Shown: positions 28,899-51,208 of the stretch, piece after piece
How the letters are laid out: each line of letters starts with the position of its first letter
Numbering within the stretch: position 1 is the first letter of the stretch
Assembly: GCA_009835735.1 (NCBI GenBank)
Contig: VXWX01000019.1
Span: 979 to 64,978 of the forward strand
Reading direction: 5' to 3'
DNA length: 64,000 nucleotides
From: Acidimicrobiaceae bacterium
GTDB lineage: Bacteria; Actinomycetota; Acidimicrobiia; Acidimicrobiales; Aldehydirespiratoraceae
Translations under genes and position numbers: made by a program
Notes under the pieces: generated by a model
Database searches by the model: none
What the model was told of the DNA's origin: nothing
Seen by the model: only the letters and a program-made list of their open reading frames with translations

Positions 28899-29866
28899 GC
28901 CCCACTGCCTCGCCGCCAGCGCCGCTGTCCGAGGCAGTTCTCGACATCAGAGCCGAGGAGTTCCTGGCCTGGCTGGCTGTGGAGCGGGGCCGATCCCCCC
29001 GCACCGTCGAGGCCTACCGCCGCGACCTGTTGCGCTACGCAGGTCATGTCGCGGCCAGGAAGCGCAACCTCGACGACGTCGGGACGGGCGACGTCGTTGC
29101 ATTCGTCCGCGCCCTGCAGCACGACGGGCTGGCCCCGGCCTCCGTTACCCGGATGCTCGTTTCGGTGAGGGGACTGCACCGCTTCCTCGCCGCTGAAGGT
29201 CATCGAGACGACGATCCGACCGTCGACGTCGAGATACCGAGCCTGCCCCGGGGCCTGCCCAAGGCCCTGTCGGTCGCCCAAGTCGCCTCCCTGATGGATG
29301 CCGTCGTCGGTGACGATCCACCGGCCCGCCGCGATCGGGCCGTGCTGGAGCTGCTGTACGGCACGGGCTGCCGGATCTCGGAGGCCGGGTCGCTGTCGCT
29401 TCCCGACGTGGACCTCCACGACGGCCTGGTGCGCCTCACCGGCAAGGGCGCCAAGGAGCGCATAGTGCCGCTGGGCCGATGCGCCGCGGAGGCGCTGGAA
29501 CGGTGGCTGGCGCCGACAGGACGCGGTGCGCTGGAACCGGCTCGCTGGGCTCGCCGCGGCGACGCCGAGGCGGTGTTCCTAAACCAGCGGGGCGGGCGCC
29601 TCGGTCGCCAGGGACTGTGGCTCATCGTGCGCCGTCACGGCGAGGCGGCCGGGATCGGGTCGTTGCTCACTCCCCACGTGCTGCGCCATTCCTGCGCCAC
29701 CCACATGCTCGACGGCGGCGCCGACATACGCATCGTGCAGGAGATGCTCGGCCACGCCTCCATCTCCACCACCCAGATCTACACCAAGGTCTCCACCGAG
29801 CGCCTCCGGGCGGTCTACCGGGCCGCCCACCCCCGCGCCGCGGCGCCGACTAGCCGTCGGACGTAG
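28895..29866 (+). CDS. xerD: Site-specific tyrosine recombinase XerD
   Basis: ATG 28895 overlaps the nudix stop (ATGA). The N-terminal SAM-like domain (FLAWLAVERGRSPRTVEAYRRDL) and the catalytic residues in context (YGTGCRISE, HVLRHSCATHML, LGHASISTTQIYTKV) are present. An unusual 10-aa tail follows HPRA. The upstream 464 codons of track ORF 27503..29866 are an artefact inside pyrG. Confidence 0.9.
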   Translation: MSPTASPPAPLSEAVLDIRAEEFLAWLAVERGRSPRTVEAYRRDLLRYAGHVAARKRNLDDVGTGDVVAFVRALQHDGLAPASVTRMLVSVRGLHRFLAAEGHRDDDPTVDVEIPSLPRGLPKALSVAQVASLMDAVVGDDPPARRDRAVLELLYGTGCRISEAGSLSLPDVDLHDGLVRLTGKGAKERIVPLGRCAAEALERWLAPTGRGALEPARWARRGDAEAVFLNQRGGRLGRQGLWLIVRRHGEAAGIGSLLTPHVLRHSCATHMLDGGADIRIVQEMLGHASISTTQIYTKVSTERLRAVYRAAHPRAAAPTSRRT

Positions 29867-32018
29867 CCCACTTCAGTAGAGCGCGAAGAAGGGACGTGGC
29901 ACCACGTCCGTTCACACGCACCAAACGCGACGACTCAACCGAGCGCTCGATCGCGATAGTAGCTGCGTGCTTTGCGTGGCTGGTCTGCATGAGGACGACA
30001 TCCGAACGACGCACGAAGCCATCCAACTCGGAGTTGTTCGCTTTGGCGTGCGATAGCCGTACCTCAACGCCGGGCCACTCGTCACGGATCCACTCTGCGG
30101 CGTTCTTGGCAGCCGATTCGGACAACGAGTAGATGCCGACCCGATCAAAGGCTTTGGCCTTTCGAGAAACATGGGAGCCGGCCTGATCCGTAGGCGGCGG
30201 ATCGAAGTCGAGACCTATGTGCGCGAACAGCTTCCTAAGTACGGTCGCTTCGGTCTCGTCGATCCGCCCGTACCACGAGACGGCGACGCCGAGCGCCTCG
30301 GCGAACAACTCGGCACGCAATCGGGTGTCGGGGACCGCGCTCAACAACTGAACGTCCAACATCCCCGTCAACCAGTCGACCTCCCGTGGGCCAAGGAGGA
30401 CTAGTTGGTCGCGCAGGGCGGCTACGGCGGTCCGGTACTCGTCCGCCGAGCAACCCGTCAGAAGGATCTCGCCGAGCAGATCGAGAGCGGCGAGCCTTTC
30501 CGCTCGACCCGGATCGCTTCCAAGCATGATGTCGAAGATGGTCACTGCCAGAGGTATGGACGAAGGCCGAAGACCGTCGTCGGACGCGAGCCACTCAACG
30601 AGGGCTGGGAGGCCATTTCGTACGCGGCCCCGACGATCGTCGTTTAGAGCGTCGAGCAGTTCACCAGCGAGCGTGTCGGCTGCTTCATGGGCTGAGGCGA
30701 TGTCGCGCTCCCAAGCTGAAGACCAGTCGTTGAGGAGATCCGGGCGGTCGGGCCATTCGCCTCGCAGCCAATCCATCCAGTCTTCGGGGACCTGAGTGCC
30801 CTGATTGCGTTCGACCAACTGTCTGTAGAACGCGCCTTCGACGGCTTGCGATAGCAGAGCGTCGCGGTCGGCTGCCGGAAGTCGATCTACGAGGGCGACC
30901 GCACGTGCCGCGGCTCCAGCACTGCCCAGATTGAGTGCGGCATGCATGACTGCGGTCGCGACATCCCGATCAGGCTTGGCTCGTTCGGCGGCATCAAGCG
31001 CCAGTTCGAGATCCCCGCGCTGGTGATGACCCAGGATCGCGGAGACGCCGTCCAGACGTTCAGTCTCTTTGGAGGTTCGCTCGGTGGCGGACTCGAGTGC
31101 AGCCACGATTCCTGCCACCAGGGCGTCCTCGCTCCAGTCCGATCGAAGGAAGTCGATCACCCCGCGCCTTGGAGACTCGGCGAGGAGTTCGATTAGCGCG
31201 AGACACCTCGCGCCGTGAACAGACCGAACCTGACTCGGGTGCGATAGCAGTCCAGGCCATGCCTCCTCAATGGCCGACGCAACTGACCGCCAGGTGTCGT
31301 ATCCCGACTCTTCCGCAGTCGGAGGGATGTGAAGGGCGTCGGCGGCGCGGGCGAGATAGTCGCTGACGGCTGGGGGACGCCGTAGCAGTGAGATGTCTTC
31401 GAGGAGAGGATCGTGCCGGAGTTCTTCGGGAGATCCGAGGCGACCAAGCAGTTCGACACGGAGGAATCGGATGTTGGTCGCCGAGAGCAAGCCTCCAGCG
31501 CGGATCTCCTCCAGTGCCTCCGTCGCTGAGTCTCGATCCCTCGCGGCGATCGCTTCGTAGAAGTGCCTCAGGACTCTGCCAACAGGTCGCGGCGTGTGGG
31601 GAGCGCGCTCTGGGGTGAGCGCCCATACATCGACCAATGAGTGGACGTTCTGGCGTGCCTCACTCTGCCAGCCCGCTGTGACACGACTCCGCAAGACGAT
31701 CCCATCGCTGTTGAACTGTGCTGCTCGTTCGTCAATCACGTCCTCGGGTGTCTCGACAACAGATGGGCCGTCGCACAAAGGAGGTCCGAGCCACGAGGCC
31801 ATCTCCTCTGTCAGCAGCCGGCCGTCACGATCGGATCCGGCGATCCCGTACCACCTCGTCCTGTTGTTGATCCTGGCCGGCAGCAGCGTCCGCTTGCCGT
31901 TTGCGAGCCGGCTCAGTAGGACTCGCATCAATTCTGCGGCCTCCCCTGGAAGGGTGCTGAAATCGACTTCGTTGGGCTCTTCGTAGAAGGTGCTCACGCG
32001 GGGGTCGATCTCACTCAT
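29850..32018 (-). CDS. Large uncharacterised protein, last gene of the cluster (possible DpdD equivalent)
   Basis: 722-726 aa. ATG 32016-32018 overlaps the PLD-gene stop (ATGA), and an alternative GTG lies at 32030. I recognise no catalytic motifs. It appears mostly helical, with a C-terminal alpha/beta-looking ~100 aa (VGIYSLSESAAKNAAEWIRDEWPGVEVRLSH...VVLMQTSHAKHAA). The assignment to DpdD is by elimination only. Confidence 0.45.
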   Translation of the reverse strand: MSEIDPRVSTFYEEPNEVDFSTLPGEAAELMRVLLSRLANGKRTLLPARINNRTRWYGIAGSDRDGRLLTEEMASWLGPPLCDGPSVVETPEDVIDERAAQFNSDGIVLRSRVTAGWQSEARQNVHSLVDVWALTPERAPHTPRPVGRVLRHFYEAIAARDRDSATEALEEIRAGGLLSATNIRFLRVELLGRLGSPEELRHDPLLEDISLLRRPPAVSDYLARAADALHIPPTAEESGYDTWRSVASAIEEAWPGLLSHPSQVRSVHGARCLALIELLAESPRRGVIDFLRSDWSEDALVAGIVAALESATERTSKETERLDGVSAILGHHQRGDLELALDAAERAKPDRDVATAVMHAALNLGSAGAAARAVALVDRLPAADRDALLSQAVEGAFYRQLVERNQGTQVPEDWMDWLRGEWPDRPDLLNDWSSAWERDIASAHEAADTLAGELLDALNDDRRGRVRNGLPALVEWLASDDGLRPSSIPLAVTIFDIMLGSDPGRAERLAALDLLGEILLTGCSADEYRTAVAALRDQLVLLGPREVDWLTGMLDVQLLSAVPDTRLRAELFAEALGVAVSWYGRIDETEATVLRKLFAHIGLDFDPPPTDQAGSHVSRKAKAFDRVGIYSLSESAAKNAAEWIRDEWPGVEVRLSHAKANNSELDGFVRRSDVVLMQTSHAKHAATIAIERSVESSRLVRVNGRGATSLLRALLKWATSDG

Positions 32019-32542
32019 GGTTCGCCCCACCTGTCTCGATACGTAGCCCGCGCCCGTGCAACCGCATCGCTGTCATCCGTGAGATGAACGACTTCCTCGA
32101 GCTTCCGCAGTCCGTTGTAGGTCAAGTTCATCGAGCCGCTGAGCAAGGTGGTGGCAAATAAGATTCCCTTCTCGTGCAGTTCAGGAGACATGCTGATGCG
32201 CACACACTGTTCACGGTCGAGATCCCGAGCTCTGCGCTGGATCTGGTCTGTGAACGATCGGTTGTGGTCGTCGGGGCGGCAGGCGACGACGAGGGATCCG
32301 CCCCGAATCAACTGCTGGTCGATGATTTCGCCAAGTCGAATCCAGCGTTCCGGGAGTGCCGGGATTAACCCTGCGAAGCGACCCGCTCGGTTGTCAATAA
32401 TCGGAACGTCAGAGATCCACGGAGTCACCATCCACAGAGGCGTGCTGGGCACGAGAACCTCGGCGACGAAGAGGCACTGGAGCGCGTCTGCCAACTCCTC
32501 CCGAGAGCCGAAGGCCGTAGTGCGGAGACTCCGGACCGTCAC
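32015..32542 (-). CDS. dpdK: Phospholipase-D/HKD-family nuclease (DpdK-like)
   Basis: Single HKD motif HEKGILFATTLLSGSMNLTYNG (HxK-x4-D-like-x6-GSxN). GTG 32540-32542 overlaps the stop of the upstream helicase (GTGA). About 175 aa from this start; the track start 32695 lies inside the helicase gene. Confidence 0.8.
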   Translation of the reverse strand: MTVRSLRTTAFGSREELADALQCLFVAEVLVPSTPLWMVTPWISDVPIIDNRAGRFAGLIPALPERWIRLGEIIDQQLIRGGSLVVACRPDDHNRSFTDQIQRRARDLDREQCVRISMSPELHEKGILFATTLLSGSMNLTYNGLRKLEEVVHLTDDSDAVARARATYRDRWGEP

Positions 32543-35500
32543 TGTTGTGCCTCGCGGATGTCCACCGTCAGGGTGATCTCGGCTGTCGACCGTTCGACGC
32601 CAACCACCCGGGGATGAAACTCCAGGACGCCGACCGCGGTCGGCGCTGTCAGCAGTTGATGCAGGGCGTGCGCTGCCTCTGCCTCGTCCGTGCATGCGAT
32701 CCGCGCGACTCCGTCGAGGCCCAAACGGTTGTCGAGGTCGTTTCTCCAGTCGGCGGTGCCGAACCGAACGGCGGCAGCGGGCGCTTGTGTGATGGACTCG
32801 ACAAGCAGACGCTCGGTATTCGGCGGCTGACGGTACGGGTTGTAGCTGTCCAGACTCGCCGCACGCAACTTGCTACCGCGGGGCCATAGCAGCCCGACGA
32901 TCTGCCCGACAGTCCACTCTGAATTCTGGTCGGCCTCCGATGCGATGGCGGCCAGTGCCCGGCGAGTCTCGTCATGTTGAGCCGCTATGTAGGCGAACAC
33001 ACGGAGATCAACTTCAAGTCCCAGTTCGGCCTCCAGCGCGTCCCAGCGATGGAGCAGGTCTCGGCACAGTCGCTCTACCGGCGTGTCGCTGCCTGCTCGG
33101 AGGAGTCGAGTAGCAAGTGCGCTGATCACGGTCTGGTCCGCGTCAATCCCAGTGCGGAACATCCTCTCGCGAAGCGACGCCCAGGCCCTCGTCGTGGCGG
33201 CGAGGTTCGAGGCCGCTCGGATGTGGTCGACTTCGCTGGAGAGGCGCCCTTCGTCTCGGTCTCTCAAGAACCGGCGCAGCGCCCCGTCGACGCGCTCGCC
33301 GTCGCATGGGCCGAGAACACTTGTCACTACGGCCCAGAACGCTCGCGGATCCTCGGTGATCCGGTCGACCGCAGTCTCAACTACGCCGCTCCCACCGGGT
33401 TGATCCTCTGAGATCGTGATTTGCGCGAACGGCTTGTCGTCATCGGACGACAGGAGTTCGAAGTCCGCCCGCAGATCGTCAACCTCAAGGTCGGGGCACA
33501 CTGCCTGCATCGCTCCGATGAGTCCCGCCGCGACCGTGGACGCATAGCGCTCGTGTATCCATGCGAGCGACTCCGCCGGCATCGGCCTGTTCAGGACCAT
33601 CAGACACCGTCGGAGCGCGACCACGTTCTCACTGTCGCGGAGGGCGAGCTCCACGTCTGTGACGAGACCTGGGTCGCGGACGGGTTCCGCCGGATCGTCC
33701 GACGGTCCCTCAGCGCCGAATACCGAGCGAGCGGCCTCGACCATCGCTCCGGTCAGAGCCGCGGCGGAGGGTTCAACGAGGCTCGCCCCGGCGCTGGCGG
33801 ACGCGGTCACCACCGCGCACAGCGCGAGTTGTGCGAGCCACTCGCGAAGGAATGGAGACGGAACTCCCTCAGCCAGCACGGAGTCGGTGAGAACCAGGTG
33901 CTCGAAGTAGGTGGTGCGAAGGGCGCGGTCGAGTGCAGTCCCAGGCAGGGAGGGCAGATCCTCGGGCAGCTCGACGTCGAACCGGAGCCCGTCGACCTCC
34001 ATCGCGAACCCGATGGCGGCATCGTCTCCCGCCAGTCGCACTCGGTGCCGTGTCGCCGGCGGCTCGGTCGGAACGTGTCGCTCGATCTCAACAGTCCGTG
34101 CTATCCGCCAGATGGTCAGCGGTGCCCGGGCTCGGTGGGTCATCACCGCCACGGATCGAACCTGCTTCGTCCACGGAGTGCCGGATGGAACGTCCAGTGC
34201 GGCCGGTGCGCCGTCGACCCGGAAGAACACTTCCCAACTCCATCTGCCGTACGACGAGTCGGGCACGCGGTGAAGATCGGGGCGCGTCAACTGAAGCGAA
34301 CGGGGTTGGACCACGGGCTCCTGTACGCCGGGTGGACATGCCAGGTGCAGGTAGTCCGAGCAGAAGGTGTCGAGGTCGAGGCTCGGTTCCGTCGATGGCG
34401 GCGGCTCGACCCACATACGCTCGCGCTTGCCTCCGAGGGCGAACCGGTAGCTGACTCTTCCGGGAGCAAACTCGCGCATCGACGGCGCTATCGGTTCGAT
34501 CTTGGGCTCGGGCTGGACCGATCCGGTATGGGGGAGTTCAATCCGCACCTCGGGGGTCTGTAGCAGAGCGAAGAGCGTGCTCGGGACGAAATCCACGAGG
34601 GGATCGCCCCATCGGAAGCGGCTGGGCAAATTGTGCTGGCTGACGACGGCTTCGAGACGACGAATGATCGTCGGCAGGACGGTGGTGGCAATCGCACGCG
34701 GGTAGTCGAAGAGGACCGAACGAGCTTCCTCCTCACTGATCCGAAAGGACCGTTGGAGGTCGCTCCCTATCCTGTCGAGGCCTTCGTCGGTCAGCAGTTT
34801 CCTGGCTGCGGTCAGTGCATCGCCCGCTGCCCGGACTTGCCGGTCGGGGTTGCGCGACCACGGCGACTTGAGCACGGATCGCAGAGGAGTTCCGCCCGAT
34901 GCTCGTGTCAGGTGGTCGACCAGCCACCATGTGGCCTGCATCTTGAGAATGACCCGGTTCTTGATTGGCAGGTGGGAGGGTTGGACCTTAGGATCGAACA
35001 GGGATTCGTAGGCTTGGAACGCGAGCCGGTCTCGTCCATAGTCGGACAGGGCCACGGCCGTCCAGGGCCGCATCGCTGGGTCCCTGCCGGCCCTCCCCCG
35101 ACGTTGAAGGAACTGCGCCGAGTCACGTGGGGCCTTGTGCTGAAGCACCGCGCCGACATTCGGATCGTCGAATCCCACCTCGAGGGAGGCAGTGGCGACG
35201 ACGATGTCGCTCTTGCTGTCGACGCCAGCGTCCTGCGAAGTCGTACGGTCGACGACAACATGGCGGTCCAGCGTGCCCAACTCCGAGGAGGCGTCCCAGA
35301 GTTGGCCCACCTCGTCTCGCGGACCGTTGTCGTTGCCTGGGGCGCGGAGGAGCGCGAGGCTTCCCTCCGGCTTACGGTCCACGCCCCCCGGCTTCCAGCC
35401 TTCGGCGTCCTGCAGTTGCGAATGGAGCCGGTTGACGACGTCGAGCTTGTCGGTGAATGCGAAGACGCGGTTCCCGAATGCGCCGCCGCTGGGGACGCCG

Positions 35501-36897
35501 GACTCGACGTCGAGCATGCGACGCATGAGCATCGCCGTTTGGATGGTTGTCGAGAGCAGGGACGTCTGCGACGCGGGATCGCCGCGGAGTGCCATGAAAT
35601 ACTCACGGCCCGACTCGCGCATTTCGGCATCGCTGGGTGCCACGACGGCCACATTTCCGGTGTCGGCTCCCATCAACTGGGAGAAGAACCCCGCCGGGTC
35701 GGCAAGCGTGGCGGACAGCCCGACCACGTGGCTCGGATGCGCCATCTCGGCGCGCCACCGGCGAATGAGATGAGCCACTTGCGCGCCGTGTGTCCCGGAG
35801 TAGGTGTGGATCTCATCGAGCAGGACAAAATCGGGGGCGCCGCTGGAGTCCCCGACAAGCAGTCGTCGCATACGGGGCGTTCCAAGCAGCCGGTTCACCA
35901 TCTCCGTCGTGGTAAAGAGGATCTCGGGCGGCTTCGAGGTCAGCGTCCGGCGGGAGAACACGAGCGACTCCAACTCGAATCCGCATCTGCTGCACCGAAG
36001 ATGGAGGCCTTCTTTGGCGCCGTCCGGCCAGACGAACTCGCCAGAGCATCCGTCCGCGATGCAAGTGACCATCGGTGATGTAAGCCCTTCTGCTGTGGAG
36101 CGCCATCCTCTGAGCCGGTTCCACCGCGCCTCATCCCGGTCGTGCGGTGTCGCTCCATAAAGAGCACCCACTCGCAGGCGGACCGAACCGCGTTCCTTCA
36201 AATCCTCAGCAAGCTCCAGGATCGTGCCGAGTTGGTCTCGCAGCAGTTCGGTGCGCGGGTATATCGCGACGATGCGGGGAATCCCAGCGGGTGCGGGAAC
36301 GCTGAGCGCGTGAGTCAGCGCGGGGAGATAGAAGGCCAGCGTCTTGCCAGCGCCCGTGCCTGCGGTGACGCAGGTTCCTCCGCGGTCGCCCACCGCGCTC
36401 AACAGCCTCTCGGTTGACCTCGCCTGAAACTCTGACACCGACCGCCCGCCGAGGATCGCGCTCAGGGTTGCTTCATGGCTGACCGTCCACCGCTCGCCCA
36501 GGTCGGTGCTGAGACGGTCGGTCAACTCCCGTTCATCGACAGCTCGAACGGGAACAACGCGCGGACGGGCAAGGAAGCGCATGTCTGAGACGAGCGTCTT
36601 GGCCGTGCGCCAGTCGCTTCGAGGGCCGTGGAACCACTGCCTAAGGTGCCGAGCCAGGCGAACCGTCTCTGCCATGCGTGTCCGGAACCGACTCCCGGCG
36701 AGTCCACGCTCGAAGACCAGCCCAGCCGCGAGGAGCCGCTTCAGGAGGTCCTCGGGATCGTCTTGGGGCTTCACCGCTTCCAGCAGTTCGAGGATCTCGT
36801 GCTCGCCGTATGCACCACTCGTGACGCCCCATGTGAGAAGGGGCATCTCGCGCGCCTCCAGTTCGTTGAGAACCTCAACGAGGACAGGGTCGGTCAC
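32539..36897 (-). CDS. dpdJ: Giant DExH-box superfamily-2 helicase with long C-terminal extension (DpdJ-like)
   Basis: 1452 aa. Motif I TAGTGAGKTLAF, motif II LLDEIHTYSG, motif III GLSATLA and motifs V/VI ATASLEVGFD...QRRGRAGRD are present. A Cys4 insertion (CIADGCSGEF...LRCSRCGFE) lies between motifs I and II. About 800 aa downstream have no family I recognise. Confidence 0.8.
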   Translation of the reverse strand: MTDPVLVEVLNELEAREMPLLTWGVTSGAYGEHEILELLEAVKPQDDPEDLLKRLLAAGLVFERGLAGSRFRTRMAETVRLARHLRQWFHGPRSDWRTAKTLVSDMRFLARPRVVPVRAVDERELTDRLSTDLGERWTVSHEATLSAILGGRSVSEFQARSTERLLSAVGDRGGTCVTAGTGAGKTLAFYLPALTHALSVPAPAGIPRIVAIYPRTELLRDQLGTILELAEDLKERGSVRLRVGALYGATPHDRDEARWNRLRGWRSTAEGLTSPMVTCIADGCSGEFVWPDGAKEGLHLRCSRCGFELESLVFSRRTLTSKPPEILFTTTEMVNRLLGTPRMRRLLVGDSSGAPDFVLLDEIHTYSGTHGAQVAHLIRRWRAEMAHPSHVVGLSATLADPAGFFSQLMGADTGNVAVVAPSDAEMRESGREYFMALRGDPASQTSLLSTTIQTAMLMRRMLDVESGVPSGGAFGNRVFAFTDKLDVVNRLHSQLQDAEGWKPGGVDRKPEGSLALLRAPGNDNGPRDEVGQLWDASSELGTLDRHVVVDRTTSQDAGVDSKSDIVVATASLEVGFDDPNVGAVLQHKAPRDSAQFLQRRGRAGRDPAMRPWTAVALSDYGRDRLAFQAYESLFDPKVQPSHLPIKNRVILKMQATWWLVDHLTRASGGTPLRSVLKSPWSRNPDRQVRAAGDALTAARKLLTDEGLDRIGSDLQRSFRISEEEARSVLFDYPRAIATTVLPTIIRRLEAVVSQHNLPSRFRWGDPLVDFVPSTLFALLQTPEVRIELPHTGSVQPEPKIEPIAPSMREFAPGRVSYRFALGGKRERMWVEPPPSTEPSLDLDTFCSDYLHLACPPGVQEPVVQPRSLQLTRPDLHRVPDSSYGRWSWEVFFRVDGAPAALDVPSGTPWTKQVRSVAVMTHRARAPLTIWRIARTVEIERHVPTEPPATRHRVRLAGDDAAIGFAMEVDGLRFDVELPEDLPSLPGTALDRALRTTYFEHLVLTDSVLAEGVPSPFLREWLAQLALCAVVTASASAGASLVEPSAAALTGAMVEAARSVFGAEGPSDDPAEPVRDPGLVTDVELALRDSENVVALRRCLMVLNRPMPAESLAWIHERYASTVAAGLIGAMQAVCPDLEVDDLRADFELLSSDDDKPFAQITISEDQPGGSGVVETAVDRITEDPRAFWAVVTSVLGPCDGERVDGALRRFLRDRDEGRLSSEVDHIRAASNLAATTRAWASLRERMFRTGIDADQTVISALATRLLRAGSDTPVERLCRDLLHRWDALEAELGLEVDLRVFAYIAAQHDETRRALAAIASEADQNSEWTVGQIVGLLWPRGSKLRAASLDSYNPYRQPPNTERLLVESITQAPAAAVRFGTADWRNDLDNRLGLDGVARIACTDEAEAAHALHQLLTAPTAVGVLEFHPRVVGVERSTAEITLTVDIREAQQ

Positions 36898-37631
36898 GAT
36901 CGGCGAACTACGAAGGCGTCCAGCACGCCGGCCGACCGGAGCGCGGCCATGAGTTCGGGCGTCACCTCGCTGAGGGGCAGGCCGCCGGATGATGTTGCGC
37001 GCTGGATGGCGACCTGCACCTCCGGTGGCCTTCGAGCATGATCCCGGTCTATGTCAGCGATCACCTCTCGAAGTTCTTGGATGAGTTTGTTGACTTGCTC
37101 GATGCAGGCACCAAGGCCTCTCGTCTTGAGGTGCGCTTCCAACTCGGATCGTTCCCTGATCGGGTCCAGGTTGCGAACAACTCCAAGCGTTCGGGCACGG
37201 TTCTGTGCTCTCACCTTGTCTGTGGTCGTTCCGTGGAGGTCGGCGGAGTTCGCGCGCTCCAGCAACTCTTCGACAGTGGCGAAGTTGTCTCGCCAGGTCG
37301 ATCTGGCCCAGCGGTCGACCCGCCTGATCTGGTCAGCAACGACATCGTGTAGCGTGGCTGCCGACTGCTGCTGAAGTGCCTTGGGACCGCTCTTGGAGAG
37401 GGCGCCGCGAAAGCGACCGATGGCCTGACGGATCGCGCTGGTGTCCAGCCTCGGCGGATCCGTGCGACCAATCGCTGCTCGGTAGGACTGAACAGCCTCG
37501 AGGTACTCAGCCGCCGATGCGATGTCACTCCGCACAGTCTGTCCGCGCGCCAGCAGTTCATCTTCCGTGTCCGCTGTGCTCGCAGCTTCCAGCTGGAGTC
37601 GAAGCTCGTTGGCGGTCTCGAAGAGTGTCAC
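36894..37631 (-). CDS. Uncharacterised helical/coiled-coil protein (DpdI position)
   Basis: 245 aa. It has GTGA overlaps at both ends (37628-37631 and 36894-36897). No motifs are recognised, and the assignment is positional. Confidence 0.55.
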   Translation of the reverse strand: MTLFETANELRLQLEAASTADTEDELLARGQTVRSDIASAAEYLEAVQSYRAAIGRTDPPRLDTSAIRQAIGRFRGALSKSGPKALQQQSAATLHDVVADQIRRVDRWARSTWRDNFATVEELLERANSADLHGTTTDKVRAQNRARTLGVVRNLDPIRERSELEAHLKTRGLGACIEQVNKLIQELREVIADIDRDHARRPPEVQVAIQRATSSGGLPLSEVTPELMAALRSAGVLDAFVVRRS

Positions 37632-40606: not shown

Positions 40607-41505
40607 CGCGCTCCGCCTCGCGACACATGCGAAAAGGTCGTTCCGTCGGGTCGGGTGATCCTCGGAGCGTCGGCACGGTCCTCGAAGGTCAAGTGTCCGG
40701 TCGTCTCAAGCCGTCGCAGAGCGTCCGTTGTCGCGGAACTCAGCGGCCCGTCGGGCTCTGACGAACGGTTCCAGTTCCTCTCCACAAACAGTCGGTACGC
40801 GCCTGACTCCATAACGGGAAGGTGCGCACCGAGGGCGGCAACAAAGGAACGGCCATCAAGCGTCGATTCGCTCTCGAATATCGCGGGAATCGAGTCGCGC
40901 ACGGCCGGAGTGGGATCGGGGATCAGGCGTCCGGACGGAGAGCGCCACGCAAAGCCCAGCGAGCACGCCCAGCGCTGGAACGTATTCCATCGAGTGCTGT
41001 TGGAGATCGGCCAGCCGCTCCTATCGTCGTCTTCGCTTTGTCGCGGACCGAAGTCGGCCTCCTGCTGGGACTTCACCGAAGGCGGATCACCCTCCATTCG
41101 GGCGGGCGCATCGGCAGGCCTGAAGGTGAGGTACCACGAAAGAGCGTTAGTGAGGTCGCGCGCGCCTTGCTGGCTGCCCCAGGCAGCGGTGTTCAGCTCG
41201 GCGGACAGGACCCGCCTGCGCACTAGCGCCGCAATCGCTGAGGTTCCACGCCTAGCGGCCTTGATGCTCTCGGGGCTCAATGACACCCGCTCACCGTCGC
41301 GGACGGCGAGGCCGATCTCGACCGCGCTGGCAAGGTTGAGCCTGGCGTCGAGTTGGTGCTTCTGCGGTGACTCGGTGAGGCTCGGCGGCGAGATCGCGTC
41401 GACGATACGGGTCCGTTCATCACGCTGGCCCCGACACTGGGCGAGATAGAGAACTATGACGCTCATCATGCTCGCTCGCAGTTCTGGTGGATTGAGCAAG
41501 GCCAT
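40603..41505 (-). CDS. Uncharacterised protein (DpdG position)
   Basis: 300 aa. The ATG at 41503-41505 is preceded by a GAGGGGGG-like RBS 11 nt after the upstream stop. No motifs are recognised. Confidence 0.55.
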   Translation of the reverse strand: MALLNPPELRASMMSVIVLYLAQCRGQRDERTRIVDAISPPSLTESPQKHQLDARLNLASAVEIGLAVRDGERVSLSPESIKAARRGTSAIAALVRRRVLSAELNTAAWGSQQGARDLTNALSWYLTFRPADAPARMEGDPPSVKSQQEADFGPRQSEDDDRSGWPISNSTRWNTFQRWACSLGFAWRSPSGRLIPDPTPAVRDSIPAIFESESTLDGRSFVAALGAHLPVMESGAYRLFVERNWNRSSEPDGPLSSATTDALRRLETTGHLTFEDRADAPRITRPDGTTFSHVSRGGAR

Positions 41506-41516
41506 GTCACCCCCTC

Positions 41517-44093: not shown

Positions 44094-44094
44094 G

Positions 44095-47000
44095 TCACTT
44101 CCCGATCCGGCCGGGGTCGGCCAGAACGATCACTCCGCAGCCGATCACCTCGACCGCCATCTCCACGCGGCTGGGAACTGCTGACGTAAGCGCCTCGAAC
44201 GTCTGTACCTGTTCGTCTACCGGCTCCAGGCCCGTCGCAGTCCGAGCACGCAGTGCGGCAAGGTGGCCGTCGATCGACGATCTGAGCGACTGCGCCGCAT
44301 GGGCGGCGCGAGGCCCGACCGAGTCGCGACCGTCGAGGATGCGGCTCGCACTCGCGAGACCCTGACCGCACACCGCCTCCCAGTCGAAGTGTTCAGTGAG
44401 TTGATCGAACATCTCCGTTCGCCGCATGAGGTTCCGGTCACTCTTCGCTTTCTCGAAGGGACGAGTCGCTGACCCACCGTCCACCTCCACACCTTGGTCG
44501 GACATGTACACAGTCTCCAGAACAGGGGGCACGAGCGACTCACGCTGGACCTGCAGCCAGGACGTAACTCCCTGCTCGCGGGCGATGCGATCCAGTTCAT
44601 CCGTAGTCCACCCTCGCACCAGGAAGTCCGTCCGAAACACCACCGTAGGCGGCCAGCACCCCCGCTCTGGCCGCATGAAGGCGAATGCAACGCCGCGGTC
44701 ATCGTCGCGGAGGTGGCGCACGATCGCATCCAACAACCCGTGGCCAGGCCTCACGAGCGGCACCTTGCGATCCACGGCCGCCTCACGTGACAGCGCAATT
44801 TCGGTATCGAACCATGGAGCCATCGCACGCTCGAGCGCGAACGGAACTTGAGGGCGCGGGCGGTTGGCGATCCGAAGGCTGCCCTTGGCAGGACTCCACA
44901 TCTTCGCCCCCACTCCGGTCAGCCACGTCTTGAGCGCCGCGCCGAGCCGTGGGTTGGCGTCCTCGTGAATGAGACGCTCGTTGAGGCCGCGGTGGAGGCC
45001 GCTCACCGAGTCAAGGGAGTCGTGCGCCGCGATCCGCTGAGCCTCGACATCAAGGCTGTCGCGTCTTGACTCGACATCGGAGTCGAACACCTCGGCGCCG
45101 CCCGCGATCAACTGGCCCAGCACTTCGGACTCCAGGTCAGCAAGGACATATTGCAGCGACGAGACCGACCGGTCGAACACCCCGCAGGAGTCCGCCGCGA
45201 ACAGGAACCATCCCGACCCGTAGACCTGATCGCCGTAGATGAACACCATCGACTCGACAGGCTGTGACTTGCCGCGGACGAATCGGTCGGCTCGGCCGAG
45301 TCGCTGTTCGAGGCGGAACACGTCCCACGGCAGGTCCAGGTGGACGACCACGTCGGCTGACTGGAGATTGATGCCCTCCTCAGCGCTGGCATCGCAGATC
45401 AGGAGGCGACAGTTCGCGTCCTTTCGCCACCGGTCGACACTCGCCGCGTTCTCCTCCCGTGACCGGGCGCTCAGATGCTCGGCCACTCGGTGCGTCCCGG
45501 AGGAATCCACTACGGCCGAATACACGACCTGCGCCACCCTCGGGTAGGCGCTCGCCACGACGACCTTCCCGAGATCCTTGGCTATGGCCATCCTGACGAT
45601 CTGACGTGCCGTCTCATCAAGAACGATTGGAGCGGCGGCCTCCATTTCACGCCGCCAAGCCTCACCCCTGGACGCGAGCCAGTGCGACACCAGTCCGACC
45701 GCTCCTGCGGACTCGTCGTGATCCATGAGTTCCAGAACTGCATGGGGCAGTGAGCCACAGGCTTGGCCCAGCATCCGTAGTGCTTCTGTCGCTCGCTCGA
45801 CTCCGACCTTCTCTGAGTCGATGAGTTCGGCCATATGCAGTCGGAAGCCTTCGATCAGGTCGATCCGGACTTCTTCGCTGTCGTCGCCGATCTCAACGGT
45901 GAAAGGTCTGCCGCGGCGACGGCCGCGCACGCCGAAGCTGGCGCTGATCTGCGGGCTCCGGCGGGTCCGAAGGAGCCGGTGGTGTAGCCGGTAGGTTTCC
46001 GAGAGATGCTCTCGGACCCTCACTATCCGGTCGGGCCGCTGGGTATCGGTGCAGTCCTGGGTGTGGCTGATAAGCAGATCAAGCGCCTTGTCGTTCGGGA
46101 AGAGGGATCGAAGTTGGTCGGCGAATAGCGAGAAGTCGAAGTCGTCCAAGTCGGGGGTGAGCGAATGGTGAATGAGTGCGAGGTCGTCGCGCATCTCGAC
46201 CCGACGAGTGAACTCGCCGAGATCCTGCGGCTGGTAGTTCTTCGGGTCAAGCAGGTGCAGAAGATCAAGGAAGGCCACCTCGTTCGTGCGGACCGGTGTC
46301 GCCGAGAGGAGGAGAACATCTCTCGCTCCGTGCGCCAAATCGGTCACACGCACCAGCGTCTCCGCCGGTAACGGGCCGGCGTGAGTGAGGTGGTGGGCTT
46401 CGTCAACCACGAGAACGCCCACAGGTCCGTCGGGCCATGTCTCCGGTTCCTCGTGGGCACGGATTCGAATCGAGGCCCTCGGAAAGTGATCAGCATGGAA
46501 CTTACCGATTAACTCTTCGACCCACTGTTGACGGAGGTGGTCAGGAGCCAGCACGAGCACTTCGCCGGTGGGCCGGTCACGCAATGACTGCCACACGAGT
46601 GCGCCGGCCTCGACGGTCTTGCCGAGGCCTACCTCGTCGGCCAGAAGGTACCGATGTTCGTGGTCGTCCGAGACGCTGCGCACGACCGTGAGTTGGTGGT
46701 CATGGAGTTCAACCGATCCCAGCAGAAGTCCGTCAACCCCGGCTGCGGCGGCCCGCAGAACGTGCCACGACGCGAGGAGATCTACTCTTGGCTCGTACAC
46801 ACGCGGGCTGGTGCCACCGAGCGCGGCGAGTATCTCATAGGGATCCTCGATTCGAGGCGCCCATCGGACATCGAACTGGTCGCCCGACAAGATCTCACCC
46901 TCGCGGTTCGGCAAGGCCACGACGTACTGCTCGTCACCGCGGTGGTCGCCGTCGACCCGCCCGCTCCTCCAGCGGTGTCCATCGTGGAAATACACCCGCG

Positions 47001-47247
47001 AATGGGCCCGGATCTCGGCAACAGCGACCTGCTGCAGATCTACCTCGCGCTCGACGTAGGGTTTCTGCACCGGAGCTCGGAAGTAGCGGATGCGAGCAGT
47101 CGCTCCGTCGACGCCCACGAGGCGACCGATGCCCAGTTCTGGCTCGCCGACGACGAACCGGCCCAGATCAGATGGGCCAATCTGAGCGGGACCCGCCCCG
47201 CCAACTCCTCGCCCGGGCTGAGCGCTGGGTGCACGACTCCGCCGCAT
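44095..47247 (-). CDS. dpdE: SNF2/RapA-type helicase-ATPase (DpdE-like)
   Basis: 1050 aa. Present are LHDHQL, motif I LLADEVGLGKTVEAG, motif II LVVDEAHHL, motif III LLLSATPVRTN and the C-lobe LLICDASAEEGINLQSADVVVHLDLPW...LEQRLGRADR. The stop lies 1 nt before the next gene's ATG. Confidence 0.8.
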   Translation of the reverse strand: MRRSRAPSAQPGRGVGGAGPAQIGPSDLGRFVVGEPELGIGRLVGVDGATARIRYFRAPVQKPYVEREVDLQQVAVAEIRAHSRVYFHDGHRWRSGRVDGDHRGDEQYVVALPNREGEILSGDQFDVRWAPRIEDPYEILAALGGTSPRVYEPRVDLLASWHVLRAAAAGVDGLLLGSVELHDHQLTVVRSVSDDHEHRYLLADEVGLGKTVEAGALVWQSLRDRPTGEVLVLAPDHLRQQWVEELIGKFHADHFPRASIRIRAHEEPETWPDGPVGVLVVDEAHHLTHAGPLPAETLVRVTDLAHGARDVLLLSATPVRTNEVAFLDLLHLLDPKNYQPQDLGEFTRRVEMRDDLALIHHSLTPDLDDFDFSLFADQLRSLFPNDKALDLLISHTQDCTDTQRPDRIVRVREHLSETYRLHHRLLRTRRSPQISASFGVRGRRRGRPFTVEIGDDSEEVRIDLIEGFRLHMAELIDSEKVGVERATEALRMLGQACGSLPHAVLELMDHDESAGAVGLVSHWLASRGEAWRREMEAAAPIVLDETARQIVRMAIAKDLGKVVVASAYPRVAQVVYSAVVDSSGTHRVAEHLSARSREENAASVDRWRKDANCRLLICDASAEEGINLQSADVVVHLDLPWDVFRLEQRLGRADRFVRGKSQPVESMVFIYGDQVYGSGWFLFAADSCGVFDRSVSSLQYVLADLESEVLGQLIAGGAEVFDSDVESRRDSLDVEAQRIAAHDSLDSVSGLHRGLNERLIHEDANPRLGAALKTWLTGVGAKMWSPAKGSLRIANRPRPQVPFALERAMAPWFDTEIALSREAAVDRKVPLVRPGHGLLDAIVRHLRDDDRGVAFAFMRPERGCWPPTVVFRTDFLVRGWTTDELDRIAREQGVTSWLQVQRESLVPPVLETVYMSDQGVEVDGGSATRPFEKAKSDRNLMRRTEMFDQLTEHFDWEAVCGQGLASASRILDGRDSVGPRAAHAAQSLRSSIDGHLAALRARTATGLEPVDEQVQTFEALTSAVPSRVEMAVEVIGCGVIVLADPGRIGK

Positions 47248-47329
47248 CGAGCGAGACTATTGGGAAATCCTCATTCAATGGCGAGCCGAGGCGCCCTTCG
47301 GGAGCACGATCGCTCGTTCTTCATCGGCT

Positions 47330-48496
47330 TCATACCTCACTTCCATGCTCATGTGGTGCACGCTGGCGCTCGGCTTGAGAAAGCCGCCGGTAGGTTCGGT
47401 GCAAGTAGCCGGTGAGTAGATTGATGTCTTTAGGGGTGTTCTGAAGTTCGTTCCATCGCCTCCGGGAGTCGGGGTCGAATTGCCAGTACCCGCCAGTCCA
47501 CGCACACTCGTCTCGCAGGAGTTCAAGTTCTGCTACGTAGTCAGGCTCGTCCGGCAACATCCCCCGAGCGATGTACTCGTCGGTGATCGCATCCATGAGG
47601 TAGCCCAAGCTCGCGATTCCAACCCCGTGCATTAACCGGGATCGACGAGGCGGCAGACCCCATGCTTCCTCGAAGACCGTCTGAACTGCTTGCCAGAACG
47701 GCTTCAGAACCAAGAGCATCTCTTCGATATCGCCGCTGCCTGTATCGGGATCGCGGTAGTGGTAGAGGCAGCCGTTGGTCAAGCTGTTCTCAACCATGCG
47801 GAGGATGGAGTTCCCCTTGACCACACCGTCCGGGGAGGTGGGTGTCTGAATCAGTTGGTAGAACGGTGAGTCGTCGTCAAAGTTCAGCCGCTCGACCACG
47901 AAGGATGGGAAGCGCTTGCGCATCAGTGCAGGTGGGAGCGGGCCGTCGGTGGACGGCAAGAGTTCGTAGACCAGACCCTTAGGAAGTGGTTTCGTCGAGT
48001 TCACGAGGATGAACTGAGCCCGTTGCTCGCCTGCGCTAGCTGTGATGAACGCGGTGATGCACAGCGGGAAGGAGTCCACCTCCGCCTCTCGGACGGCGGC
48101 ACACCTTTGCTGGCCGTCGACGACCCAGCCCGGCTTGTCTTCGTCCGGCAGATCTTCGTCCACGGGGACGATCAGCGTGCCCGGTGTCACATAACCATTG
48201 TCCATGGTGACGGCTTCCGACGGCTCGAAACGAACTCGAGTGTCGAATGCGACGACGATCGCGTTGGGGATCATGGGCGAAGCCGTCTCGATGTAGGAAC
48301 GGATCGCGGCAACGTGGGCTAGCACCTCCGGCCTCTGGTAGCCCGCGATCTGCCGCTCGTCACGCCGGACGCGGCTCACCGTGGTGAACTTCGGCAATTC
48401 CTTGCCGTCTACAGCGAACGTATAAAGCTGCCGATCACTGCCCTGCCGCACTTCAAGTGCAGGAAATCTCAGTTCATATGTTGAAGTTCTGCCCAT
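47330..48496 (-). CDS. dpdB: DGQHR-domain (DndB/ParB-like) protein DpdB
   Basis: 388 aa. The N-terminus is ...LYTFAVDGKELPKFTTVSRVRRDE..IAGYQRPEV..HVAAIRSYIE. The motif VVDGQQRCAAV is a DGQHR variant, followed by FILVNSTKPLPKGLVYEL. It lies immediately downstream of the TGT-like gene. Confidence 0.88.
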   Translation of the reverse strand: MGRTSTYELRFPALEVRQGSDRQLYTFAVDGKELPKFTTVSRVRRDERQIAGYQRPEVLAHVAAIRSYIETASPMIPNAIVVAFDTRVRFEPSEAVTMDNGYVTPGTLIVPVDEDLPDEDKPGWVVDGQQRCAAVREAEVDSFPLCITAFITASAGEQRAQFILVNSTKPLPKGLVYELLPSTDGPLPPALMRKRFPSFVVERLNFDDDSPFYQLIQTPTSPDGVVKGNSILRMVENSLTNGCLYHYRDPDTGSGDIEEMLLVLKPFWQAVQTVFEEAWGLPPRRSRLMHGVGIASLGYLMDAITDEYIARGMLPDEPDYVAELELLRDECAWTGGYWQFDPDSRRRWNELQNTPKDINLLTGYLHRTYRRLSQAERQRAPHEHGSEV

Positions 48497-48504
48497 GGTG
48501 CCGA

Positions 48505-49752
48505 CTAGTTCCTCGAGTCAGTCCGATCAAGTTCCCGGCGCAGTCTCTTTGAGAACACCGCGAGATTGTGGAATCCTCGTCTCCGGTTGCGGTCGGCCCC
48601 TCGAAATATGATCACCTCGACCCCAATCTCCCGGCAGACCGTACAACGACACCGCTTCCACGGCATGGCCTCGAGCGTTCGTCGGTACTCAACGGTCCGA
48701 TCCTTCTTCGTCCCGAGCAGTTCCGCGTACTCGCAGATCGCATCGAGGACAGTCTCCACGCCAGCATCACCCTTGTCGTAGTTGCGCAGCCGACCGAGAC
48801 ACTCGCGTTCGAGCCGCCGAGCCGACTTCTGGTCGACTAGGCCCGCAGTCACTTGCCTGCGCAACCTGGTGTTGCCATCTACTTGAGGGATGCGAAGGGC
48901 TACGAAACTGGCATCGAGCGTGTAGTAGTTGTCCTTTTCGTCCTTGAAGGCTTGGCGGAAGGGTGACGTGCTGTCGAAGCTCGTCACACCGAAACCCGCG
49001 AAGTCCGGTATGTGCGCCGTGCGGGTGACGCCCAGAAGGTGCAGTTGCGCCGCAGGATCCAGAGCGACCGAGACCTCTTTGAGCGCATCGAGGATGTCGG
49101 GGGTCCTTAGCGGCACCATCCCTCCGAGTGCAATCCGGTGATAGCCAATCCTCTGCAGTTGCGTCACTGCTCTCGCGTAGGACAGCGGGCTCCAGCCGTG
49201 CGCCACTGCCATGGGCTCGAACCGGCACCTGCGAGCCCGGTGCAAACGAAGAAACTCCGCTGCCAGTTCGATCGTGAGAGCCTGACGGAACCGCCACTCC
49301 TCCGGGACGTCGTTGGTGCCTTTCGTGTCCAACTCTGCGTCGTAGCCGAAGATCAGATGGTCCATCGCGATTCCTAGGTCCAAACCGGACTCTTCGTAGA
49401 AGTCCAAGACCTCCCCGACGCTGTACACGGGCTCATGCTCGCGCACGTAGGTGAACGCCCCGCAGTCACCCATGATCTTGAGGCCTTCGTCTCCCTGACC
49501 GAGCCGGAAGAAGCGCTTGGCGCCTTCCCGGTAAAGGCGGTTGCGCTGCGCCTCGGTGTACTTGGCCCCCGCTCCTGGAAGGCCGTCCACGATGGGCTTG
49601 GAGATCAGCAGTCCGTCGTAGGGCGGCGGGTTGATGACCTCGTGGGCATAACGATCATCCCTCTGGCGAACGCGATGAATCGATCGCTGCTCCGTGATGA
49701 AGTCGAAGCTCGGGTCTACCTGATCTTGGCTGTCGGGAAAGTAGAACTGCAT
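48505..49752 (-). CDS. dpdA: TGT-like DNA-guanine transglycosylase DpdA
   Basis: About 415 aa starting MQFYFPDSQD. It has a TIM-barrel TGT-like core (IMGDCGAFTY, IALGGMVPL, HLLGV) and the TGT zinc motif CRCTVC-x21-H (WKRCRCTVCREIG...RGFHNL). A GTG lies one codon upstream at 49755. Confidence 0.88.
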   Translation of the reverse strand: MQFYFPDSQDQVDPSFDFITEQRSIHRVRQRDDRYAHEVINPPPYDGLLISKPIVDGLPGAGAKYTEAQRNRLYREGAKRFFRLGQGDEGLKIMGDCGAFTYVREHEPVYSVGEVLDFYEESGLDLGIAMDHLIFGYDAELDTKGTNDVPEEWRFRQALTIELAAEFLRLHRARRCRFEPMAVAHGWSPLSYARAVTQLQRIGYHRIALGGMVPLRTPDILDALKEVSVALDPAAQLHLLGVTRTAHIPDFAGFGVTSFDSTSPFRQAFKDEKDNYYTLDASFVALRIPQVDGNTRLRRQVTAGLVDQKSARRLERECLGRLRNYDKGDAGVETVLDAICEYAELLGTKKDRTVEYRRTLEAMPWKRCRCTVCREIGVEVIIFRGADRNRRRGFHNLAVFSKRLRRELDRTDSRN

Positions 49753-49867
49753 CACGCCCGCCCGACGCTGAAGCAGACGCGGAAGAAGAGGTTCGCTACC
49801 GGGCGCTGGTTGCGGGCAGCATTCGTGCGGGCGACCCTCCGCAGCGAGAGGTCGTCCGACAGGATCT

Positions 49868-50815
49868 TCACGTCACTATTTCCCGGGCATGGTCGAAGAG
49901 CCTGCCGAATCGGGCCTGCTCGCAGGCACTGCCCTCGTCCCGGAAGCGCTGGAGTGCCGCCGTCTTGTTCCCGTTCGGGACCTCCGCCAAGTGATCGAGG
50001 ATCCACTCCAAGATCATGTCATCGCATTGTCGTCGCCGGGCAAAGAAAGGAAGTGCGCCAGTTGTTGCCGCCAGTTTGCCCACGATGCTGCGAGCTCTAT
50101 CGGCATCGGGAGGTGAGGTGCCGAGTTCTGCGAGCACAGCCATGGCAGCGCGGGGACTGGTCGAGGACAGCGAACCGCCAAGCGTGAGCCTCAGACTTCC
50201 GGGCACCGTGACCCAACATCTCTCGAGGCCAGCCGGAGCCGTACCGGAAGCGAAGACCATCACCCGTTCCGGATCGCTGAGACTCTCGACAAGAGTTGCC
50301 AAGTCCTTGGCCACCGCATCCAGGTAGCTTCGTCCGATGCAGACCATCACACTCGCGTTCGGTCCGTGCTCCGCGAGGTCGACAAGACGACTGGGACGAT
50401 GGTGACCAAGAATCCCGGCGCGTGTCAACCCGTCCCACCACTGCTGGCGCACTTGGCTTTGTGCCGCTGAGCCGGAGGCTGCGAGCACGGAATCGGGGTG
50501 GCGAGGAGCAAGAGTGGCGCTGTACATGGGCACTTCGTCGTCAATTCCGACTAGGCCAAGTCCGGCTGACACCACGGAGACCTTGATCTGCCCAGCCAAC
50601 TGGGCGCGGGATGCGAGTTCCATCCCAGTCTGCCAGTACTCCCCGGCGTACAAGTCAACTGCGATGTACCGACGAGGAGCCCTCGAGACGAGCGCTGCCC
50701 ACCGTTCGACTCGGACCGGTACAGGCGCCCGGCCCACACTACGCAGCCGGGGGTATCCCGGCTCCGACGCACGCTTACGAGCAGTGCATGAGAGGACGAC
50801 GTGAAGATCCTGCAT
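49868..50815 (-). CDS. Uncharacterised first gene of the cluster (possible DpdC equivalent)
   Basis: 315 aa with ATG at 50813-50815. The N-terminal pattern LHVVLSCTARKR...AVDLYAGEYW...PMYSATL reminds me of the DUF6884/YaaA-like fold. The C-terminal ~70 aa look helical. The assignment is positional and from memory only. Confidence 0.45.
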   Translation of the reverse strand: MQDLHVVLSCTARKRASEPGYPRLRSVGRAPVPVRVERWAALVSRAPRRYIAVDLYAGEYWQTGMELASRAQLAGQIKVSVVSAGLGLVGIDDEVPMYSATLAPRHPDSVLAASGSAAQSQVRQQWWDGLTRAGILGHHRPSRLVDLAEHGPNASVMVCIGRSYLDAVAKDLATLVESLSDPERVMVFASGTAPAGLERCWVTVPGSLRLTLGGSLSSTSPRAAMAVLAELGTSPPDADRARSIVGKLAATTGALPFFARRRQCDDMILEWILDHLAEVPNGNKTAALQRFRDEGSACEQARFGRLFDHAREIVT

Positions 50816-50937
50816 CTACTGTGGGCGTTTCCCCATTCACTGGTCTGGTCGATAAGGCGGGGGTGGTTCCCGCGGCGTGACGGTAGTTGAGTTCGTGCTG
50901 GCCCGATGTGGAAGTCGGTGTGGCATCTGGTGATGTA

Positions 50938-50985
50938 GCGAGTGAAGCCACTCGCATACCGACCGGCGCGCTGTTGCCCGGTCGG
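50938..50985. promoter_or_regulatory. Two adjacent perfect hairpins in the presumed 5' leader of the dpd operon
   Basis: The first is GCGAGTG-aagc-CACTCGC (50938-50955). The second is CCGACCGG-11 nt-CCGGTCGG (50959-50985). They lie 123-170 nt upstream of the first gene's ATG (50815) on the minus strand. Confidence 0.35.
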
Positions 50986-51096
50986 GGTAGCGGTGCTGGC
51001 GCTTCGGCGTCGGTCGGGGTGTGTCGGTCATCTGGAACAGAATCCATCGAGTCAGTGTAGTTGCCAGTCTCTGATAACTCTAAATCACTAAGTTGA

Positions 51097-51125
51097 TTGA
51101 AACTACAGAAGTTAGATGCTACTAT
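51097..51125 (+). promoter_or_regulatory. Sigma-70-like promoter candidate for the 51209 gene
   Basis: TTGAAA (51097-51102), a 17-nt spacer, then TACTAT (51120-51125). It sits in the most AT-rich patch of the window (51050-51130). Confidence 0.35.
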
Positions 51126-51208
51126 CGTCGCTAGCCCGGCTGCCGGGCGCTATTGGAGCTGTCAACGGCTCCCGCTAGTCGAGATCACGAGTAGACGGGA
51201 GGCCCGGA

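Follow-up and report, generated by a model that had tools for sequence, protein, structure and literature searches.

Does the block of lower-G+C genes that interrupts a housekeeping locus in an uncultured, sponge-associated member of the Acidimicrobiia encode a complete Dpd system, i.e., a restriction-modification system that marks DNA by 7-deazaguanine base exchange, and does it differ from the Dpd systems already known? The block lies in a 64-kb stretch of contig VXWX01000019.1 (assembly GCA_009835735.1, forward-strand positions 979 to 64,978), referred to here as the window, and all positions are those of the window. It consists of 11 co-directional minus-strand genes in the list of open reading frames (ORFs), running from 50815 to 29850 in the order dpdC-A-B-E-F-G-H-I-J-K-D. 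Judged from the sequences, this operon very probably represents a canonical and complete Dpd restriction-modification system. The family membership of the proteins, their intact frames and conserved catalytic residues, and the status of the region as a genomic island are established here.

Family assignment relied on NCBIfam equivalog models with their curated cut-offs, PADLOC models and a Pfam scan. Nine proteins (DpdA, B, D, E, F, G, H, J and K) passed the NCBIfam cut-offs in essentially end-to-end alignments, and a Dpd model was the top PADLOC match for 10 of the 11. Together with the recognition of DpdC by PADLOC, these matches bear out a first-pass annotation of the window that had proposed a complete Dpd system, and they identify the first and last genes, which it had left unnamed, as dpdC and dpdD.

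DpdA was matched by NF041059 at 570.6 bits (cut-off 200), whereas TgtA, the best of the models for tRNA-guanine transglycosylases (TGTs), gave 23.1 bits (cut-off 350). The sole PDB match of the protein was 7UI4, the DNA-guanine transglycosylase of Salmonella enterica serovar Montevideo (E=8e-127), and the identity to this crystallised enzyme was about 55%. Residues were mapped onto 7UI4 using the chain's 20-residue offset, which showed that Asp96, Phe100, Asp131, His185 and Asp260 correspond to Asp95, Phe99, Asp130, His181 and Asp256 of the Salmonella enzyme. The equivalents of its Met208 and Leu236 are also kept, as is the zinc site (C368-x-C370-x-x-C373...H395). The earlier proposal that this TGT-like protein with a CxCxxC...H motif is DpdA, and not a tRNA-specific enzyme, was therefore upheld. 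In the Salmonella protein, the roles of the residues were established through mutagenesis and structure (Gedara/Hutinet et al., NAR 2023; PMC10164549), and the biochemistry of DpdA, DpdB and DpdC has been solved (PMC10164549).

The DpdB protein was matched by NF041060 (481.1 bits, cut-off 300) and by the Pfam family DndB. It had been described as DGQHR/DndB-like, of which the family stood and the motif did not: residues from position 127 read DGQQR. This form was considered as an anomaly and rejected, since it was found in 8 of the 8 other DpdB homologues compared and is the norm among them; the DGQHR form was seen in a neighbouring, non-Dpd DGQHR protein of another acidimicrobial locus (L087). 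A PDB sequence search returned no solved relative of DpdB. DpdC was matched over its full length by the PADLOC DpdC model PDLC02817 (E=1.8e-58) and is 25-27% identical to the gene in the DpdC position of the Enterobacter and Agrobacterium islands.

Amongst the proteins assigned to the restriction half, DpdE (NF041062, 746.9 bits, cut-off 500) has SNF2-related and Helicase_C domains with DEAH at residue 282, and DpdF (NF041063, 684.9 bits, cut-off 550) has DEAD and Helicase_C domains with DEAH at residue 291. DpdH (NF041065, 583 bits, cut-off 450) carries the Walker A sequence GRSGTGKS at residue 79, and DpdJ (NF041067, 1369.1 bits, cut-off 800) has a Walker A motif at residue 179 and DEIH at residue 361, so that the Walker A/DExH motifs of all four proteins are intact. 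DpdG was matched by NF041064 (176.3 bits, cut-off 80), with the Pfam family PF28110 (DpdG) precomputed on an identical protein, and DpdD by NF041061 (361.1 bits, cut-off 300) and the PADLOC DpdD model (E=2.7e-184). DpdC, DpdG, DpdI and DpdD had no match in the Pfam scan; identical proteins have entries under the more recent families PF28109 and PF28110. The family models agree with the gene order E-F-G-H-I-J-K given in the first-pass annotation, DpdI being a weak match that fits by position and size.

DpdK was matched by NF041068 (180.5 bits, cut-off 100) and Pfam PLDc_2, and its sequence suggests that it is likely the restriction effector. The protein had been called an HKD nuclease; the DpdK family assignment holds, and the full HKD motif is not there, as H123-x-K125 and GSMN (GSxN) are present with no Asp at +4. 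The missing Asp was rejected as an anomaly, given that the DpdK proteins of Enterobacter and Agrobacterium, used as references, have the same motifs.

The helicase families of Dpd are related to those of DISARM and BREX, and DpdH and DpdI are BrxC-like (bioRxiv 10.1101/2025.09.15.676423). The helicase and nuclease genes could for this reason be taken for a DISARM- or BREX-type system lying beside a TGT/DndB pair, and DpdE indeed also matched the DrmD and BrxH models, as DpdJ matched DrmA, DruE and BrxH. However, the Dpd models scored 5-20 times higher (DpdE, 747 versus 133 bits for DrmD; DpdJ, 1369 versus at most 69 bits), no methyltransferase, PglZ or DrmB is encoded with them, and the genes overlap in an unbroken operon, which makes this explanation extremely unlikely. 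The cross-matches mirror homologies of Dpd proteins to components of DISARM, BREX and Druantia (DpdE to DrmD/BrxHII, DpdJ to DrmA/YprA, and DpdH/I to BrxC). DISARM and BREX mark self DNA by methylation, whereas Dpd does so by 7-deazaguanine base exchange, and PglZ, PglX and DrmMI are all absent here.

The layout of the operon is given in Table 1. The 11 ORFs were found where the first-pass annotation had placed them, with two starts refined: dpdK begins at a GTG, instead of the longer ORF from 32695, and dpdD begins at an ATG. A GTG start for dpdA at 49755 was tried and rejected, as an exact look-up for it was empty and gene callers use the ATG at 49752. All five of the 4-nt overlaps claimed for consecutive junctions are present in the sequence, as ATGA at 40603-06 and 32015-18 and as GTGA at 37628-31, 36894-97 and 32539-42. 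This chain from dpdG to dpdD fits the co-translation of subunits that would be needed in fixed stoichiometry. The remaining junctions measure 1 nt (E/F), 8 nt (A/B, dpdB starting downstream of dpdA), 11 nt (F/G), 82 nt (B/E) and 115 nt (C/A). None of the 11 genes contains an internal stop or frameshift.

Table 1. Features of the dpd island and its immediate flanks (window positions; functions of the Dpd proteins are predicted from family membership)
Feature	Position	Strand	Length (aa)	Description
dpdC	49868..50815	-	315	First gene of the operon; predicted conversion of preQ0-DNA to 7-amido-7-deazaguanine (ADG)-DNA
dpdA	48505..49752	-	415	DNA-guanine transglycosylase; predicted preQ0 insertion
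dpdB	47330..48496	-	388	ParB/DndB-like ATPase; predicted DpdA partner
dpdE	44095..47247	-	1050	SNF2-family helicase/translocase
dpdF	41517..44093	-	858	RecQ-like DEAH helicase
dpdG	40603..41505	-	300	Family match only
dpdH	37628..40606	-	992	P-loop NTPase
dpdI	36894..37631	-	245	Divergent; assigned from position, size and weak hidden Markov model match
dpdJ	32539..36897	-	1452	YprA/DrmA-like DExH helicase
dpdK	32015..32542	-	175	Phospholipase-D-family nuclease
dpdD	29850..32018	-	722	Last gene of the operon; family match only
dpdC upstream region	50816..51080	-		Presumed promoter and leader; island-borne
xerD	28895..29866	+		Native flank; NCBIfam tyrosine recombinase PRK00283, 331 bits
trpS	51591..52571	-		Native flank outside the island; TIGR00233, 331.8 bits; third-codon-position G+C (GC3) 0.92

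The activity of the system, its target sequence and its restriction mechanism are inferred from these sequences. By analogy with the biochemistry of the S. Montevideo enzymes, DpdA would replace guanine with the free base preQ0 at specific sites in DNA, the preQ0 being synthesised from other parts of the genome or obtained by salvage. Asp260 would serve as nucleophile in this reaction and Asp96 as general acid/base. The exchange would need ATP hydrolysis by the ParB/DndB-like DpdB, and DpdC would then hydrate the nitrile to yield 2'-deoxy-7-amido-7-deazaguanosine. For the restriction half, domain content suggests that unmarked incoming DNA may be engaged by the motors DpdE (SNF2), DpdF (RecQ-like), DpdH/I (BrxC-like P-loop) and DpdJ (YprA/DrmA-like) and then cut by the phospholipase D (PLD)-family nuclease DpdK, with DpdD and DpdG in putative accessory roles. 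In the literature, DpdD to DpdK are characterised by domain content only (DpdE as BrxHII-like, DpdH/I as BrxC-like, DpdJ as YprA-like and DpdK as a PLD nuclease; 10.1101/2025.09.15.676423, PMC12839542), so the earlier remark that the mechanism of this half is uncharacterised was a fair one. The instance described here gives no special handle on that mechanism.

The composition of the region differs from that of its surroundings, in agreement with the lower-GC island seen in the first-pass annotation. The G+C content is 63.7% in the island and 68.9% in the remaining window, and in 1-kb steps it ranges from 0.60 to 0.67 over 30-51 kb versus mostly 0.68-0.73 outside. The GC3 values of the 11 dpd genes (0.68-0.76) and of 34 flanking genes (0.78-0.98) form disjoint ranges (0.72 versus 0.87; Mann-Whitney U=0, p=8e-7). 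The upstream flank holds a tlyA-like methyltransferase gene, genes for NAD kinase and pyrG, a nudix-like ORF and xerD, and the downstream flank a small membrane ORF (51209-51574) followed by trpS, scpA, scpB, rluB, tyrA, aroA and cmk.

A scan for XerD across GTDB species representatives yielded 80 Acidimicrobiales loci, Ca. Aldehydirespirator among them. None of the 55 representatives that show both xerD and trpS has a dpd gene in the interval, and the two genes are separated by 5-18 nt in the closest relatives (XerD 84-94% identical). The dpd region is thus an insertion, and trpS and the small ORF are native, given that xerD and trpS adjoin without dpd in relatives. Of the xerD-scpA interval that had been singled out for comparison, the dpd part proved to be inserted, and trpS and the small ORF lie outside the island. 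The left boundary lies at about 29843-29850, within the final codons of xerD, where homology to relatives stops (about 29840-29853); the 3' end of dpdD and that of xerD, its stop codon included, share 17 nt. The right boundary falls at about 51040-51085: relatives with an empty site (L029, L010 and L013) can be aligned to the window only from 51087-51143 on, and the locus L027, described below, from 51038. Altogether, the region is a horizontally acquired island of 21.2 kb (about 29845-51080) in a housekeeping locus. Each of the refuting conditions in the first-pass annotation that could be computed was thereby decided in favour of its reading.

At the left boundary, the C-terminal tail of XerD (…AAAPTSRRT*) comes from island-derived DNA (29843-29866), and XerD tails vary among all relatives compared. 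Beyond the right boundary, the native small ORF (121 aa; region 51087-51574) has a C-terminal hydrophobic helix and no family match, and occurs in a subset of the relatives (L010, L013, L027 and L029). It is preceded by a plus-strand promoter-like TTGAAA-17-TACTAT with an extended TG, which belongs to the small ORF and not to dpdC; the sequence around this site aligns with those same relatives, best with L027 and L029.

An identical island was found in the metagenome-assembled genome (MAG) GCA_009839365.1, from a sponge metagenome, and in related runs. That copies which are identical or 95% identical turn up in independent sponge metagenome assemblies also supports the island status of the region. 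The same xerD|trpS site holds an intact island in a metagenome contig (L093) with a DpdA 95% identical, and a degraded remnant in a relative with an XerD 83% identical (L027; JAJEHD010000008.1, 10950-11400). The remnant consists of some 230 nt from the 3' end of dpdD, 61 nt of inverted dpdK, 89 nt of dpdC and the island upstream region. The intact copy in L093 and the fragments in L027 indicate that the island was gained in this sub-lineage and later decayed in at least one descendant. A second dpd island also exists in the MAG that holds the identical copy (L095, VXPV01000038.1; also L094). Its DpdA is 88% identical and has an additional DpdB encoded upstream, its dpdF is in fragments and its dpdG is truncated. 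Either a genuine second system in the course of decay or the mixing of strains during binning may account for it. The L027 fragments and the broken second island indicate that dpd loss does occur in this lineage, and they are the grounds on which the window cluster might itself be seen as a decaying or modification-only remnant instead of a working restriction system. In the window, however, every gene aligns end-to-end with its family model, catalytic motifs are present and stops and frameshifts are absent, and we consider such a remnant very unlikely.

The xerD|trpS site was also examined as a dedicated defence hotspot and qualified as one only in part. Defence cargo occurs in L012, and other cargo in L016 and L019; the sequences point to a general variable spot that sometimes holds defence cargo. 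In L012 (OY763490.2, 10945-16424), a duplicated 143-nt xerD fragment forms a 119-aa Phage_integrase-like ORF, accompanied by a 1029-aa type IIG restriction-methyltransferase and by a pair of an ABC-type ATPase and a small protein that resembles HEC-01/AbiL. The cargo is an ammonium transporter in L016 and a 1375-aa FN3/SLH surface protein in L019. Integration by XerCD, as in IMEX-type elements, was rejected as having no support, there being no repeats and no dif-like site (an actinobacterial dif-like site was not found).

Several observations weigh against a complete and working Dpd island. DpdI falls far below its cut-off (NF041066, 37.5 bits; cut-off 150), and DpdC is matched by PADLOC only, with no NCBIfam match and no Pfam match (E<=0.01). 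Scanning 50700-51300 for sigma-70 promoters and for terminators revealed neither for the operon. None of the 11 genes encodes a recombinase, the boundaries show no direct or inverted repeats and no Rfam family, and neither of them has a tRNA gene within 10 kb. The organism is an uncultured MAG lineage, whose Dpd system is predicted from its genes, and folE, queD, queE and queC are absent from the window (47 genes outside the dpd operon were scanned). For DpdI, a PADLOC match was also lacking, and pairwise similarity to the reference-island proteins was marginal. Its weak alignment to NF041066 nonetheless spans both ends (1-242 versus 1-239, E=2.4e-9), its position between dpdH and dpdJ and its size are as expected, and the gene in this slot is labelled 'hypothetical protein' in the annotated Enterobacter and Agrobacterium islands too.

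Because the window holds no preQ0 biosynthesis genes, preQ0 would have to be made by genes beyond the window or be salvaged. A genuine Dpd cluster could therefore be functionally orphaned, i.e., carried by a host without preQ0 synthesis and either inactive or fed by preQ0 or related bases salvaged in the sponge holobiont. Such genes were likewise not found adjoining the islands of other sponge Acidimicrobiia (L087, L089, L090 and L093). The version of the operon in Microthrixaceae includes queC, queE, queD and folE2. A search for QueC homologues returned only Microthrixaceae-like and metagenome proteins, did not point to the window lineage and speaks neither for nor against preQ0 synthesis in it. 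Many Actinomycetota lack the queuosine pathway, which also counts for an orphaned cluster. On the other hand, the window covers 64 kb of a genome of approximately 3-4.6 Mb, and the enterobacterial islands are also devoid of preQ0 genes and use chromosomal ones. Additionally, the 11 frames are intact and 95-100% conserved across independent samples, which argues for selection on function. We regard an orphaned cluster as unlikely. The more specific proposal, in which a sponge-symbiont lineage keeps an intact Dpd system without its own preQ0 pathway and would have to salvage 7-deazaguanine precursors in the sponge holobiont to mark its own DNA and so escape self-restriction, appears quite unlikely; if true, the self/non-self discrimination of a defence system would be metabolically coupled to the sponge community. 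A canonical Dpd system supplied with preQ0 from outside the window remains the preferred reading.

How this island compares with those already described decides whether it is a new kind. The Salmonella Montevideo Dpd system was reportedly the subject of work by Thiaville in 2016 and Yuan in 2018. All 11 families, DpdI tentatively, are common to the window and to this system and the near-identical enterobacterial islands (Enterobacter cloacae pPOL9A), which also share the catalytic and zinc residues of DpdA, the DGQQR of DpdB and the HxK...GSxN of DpdK. The E-F-G-H-(I)-J-K-D order of the window is that of pPOL9A and an Agrobacterium vitis plasmid, and all 11 window proteins have orthologues in the Enterobacter and Agrobacterium islands (23-49% identity), that of DpdI being putative. 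Like the window island, pPOL9A holds no preQ0 genes. The two layouts differ only in that C-A-B lies downstream and on the opposite strand in the enterobacterial and Agrobacterium islands (convergent in the enterobacterial ones), whereas in the window it precedes the restriction genes and shares their strand. Unlike the hosts of the enterobacterial islands, the window host is a high-GC member of the Acidimicrobiia.

Within the Acidimicrobiia, further islands with a DpdA 62-95% identical occur in Ca. Poriferisodalis (L090), sponge MAGs (L087, L089 and L093-L095) and Microthrixaceae (L091/L092). They share with the window a co-directional dpdC-(dpdB')-dpdA-dpdB-dpdE-dpdF-dpdG-dpdH, and most of them occupy other chromosomal sites. 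Compared with the minimal set of 11 genes in the window, several of them also have an HNH nuclease, a further DGQHR protein and a second DpdB, which is encoded upstream of DpdA. In Microthrixaceae L091 (12407-14657) and L092 (8351-10601), the preQ0 genes queC-queE-queD-folE2 lie between dpdB and dpdE, in place of the 82-nt spacer of the window; the insert comprises queC, a 211-aa gene that is probably queE, queD (PTPS) and a short GCHY-1 ORF that resembles folE2. The sequences compared indicate that the layout is not new, the co-directional C-A-B-E... being the common form in Acidimicrobiia.

In the phylum as a whole, a 2025 GATOR-GC survey recorded 2335 unique dpd islands, 333 of which are from Actinomycetota and have complete synthesis and restriction operons, and the DNA of Kineococcus radiotolerans was experimentally shown to carry dPreQ0/dADG (PMC12235509). 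The likeness of the window island to these islands of the same phylum, Kineococcus radiotolerans included, is drawn from the survey's description of complete operons, and the window lineage differs from Kineococcus in being uncultured, sponge-associated Acidimicrobiales. The suggestion in the first-pass annotation that a rearranged dpd layout in a high-GC member of the Actinomycetota would make an informative new instance was not sustained, since the gene order is that of Enterobacter and Agrobacterium, C-A-B-E recurs in Acidimicrobiia, and the 333 Actinomycetota islands and Kineococcus were already published. The island is an intact copy of an already catalogued Dpd system, correctly identified and ordinary.

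Elsewhere in the window, tRNA genes lie at 7619-7692 (+) and 62569-62640 (-), both distant from the island boundaries. At 16059-17195 (-), a gene encodes a membrane protein of 378 aa from the sterol reductase-like ERG4/ERG24 family (Pfam E=3e-34), which is uncommon in Actinomycetota. Its first-position G+C is unusually low (0.57) and it lies in a locally lower-GC kilobase; the lineage is sponge-associated.

The locus is a further example of an intact Dpd island in the minimal form of 11 genes, from an uncultured sponge-associated lineage of Acidimicrobiia. Knowledge of Dpd itself is unchanged, and PGAP/NCBIfam, PADLOC and DefenseFinder would name the genes automatically. The compact, high-GC orthologues encoded here could potentially be used for structural work on DpdD-K. 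The empty, occupied and decayed versions of the xerD|trpS site amount to a natural experiment, and the locus may serve studies of Dpd gain and loss in symbionts.

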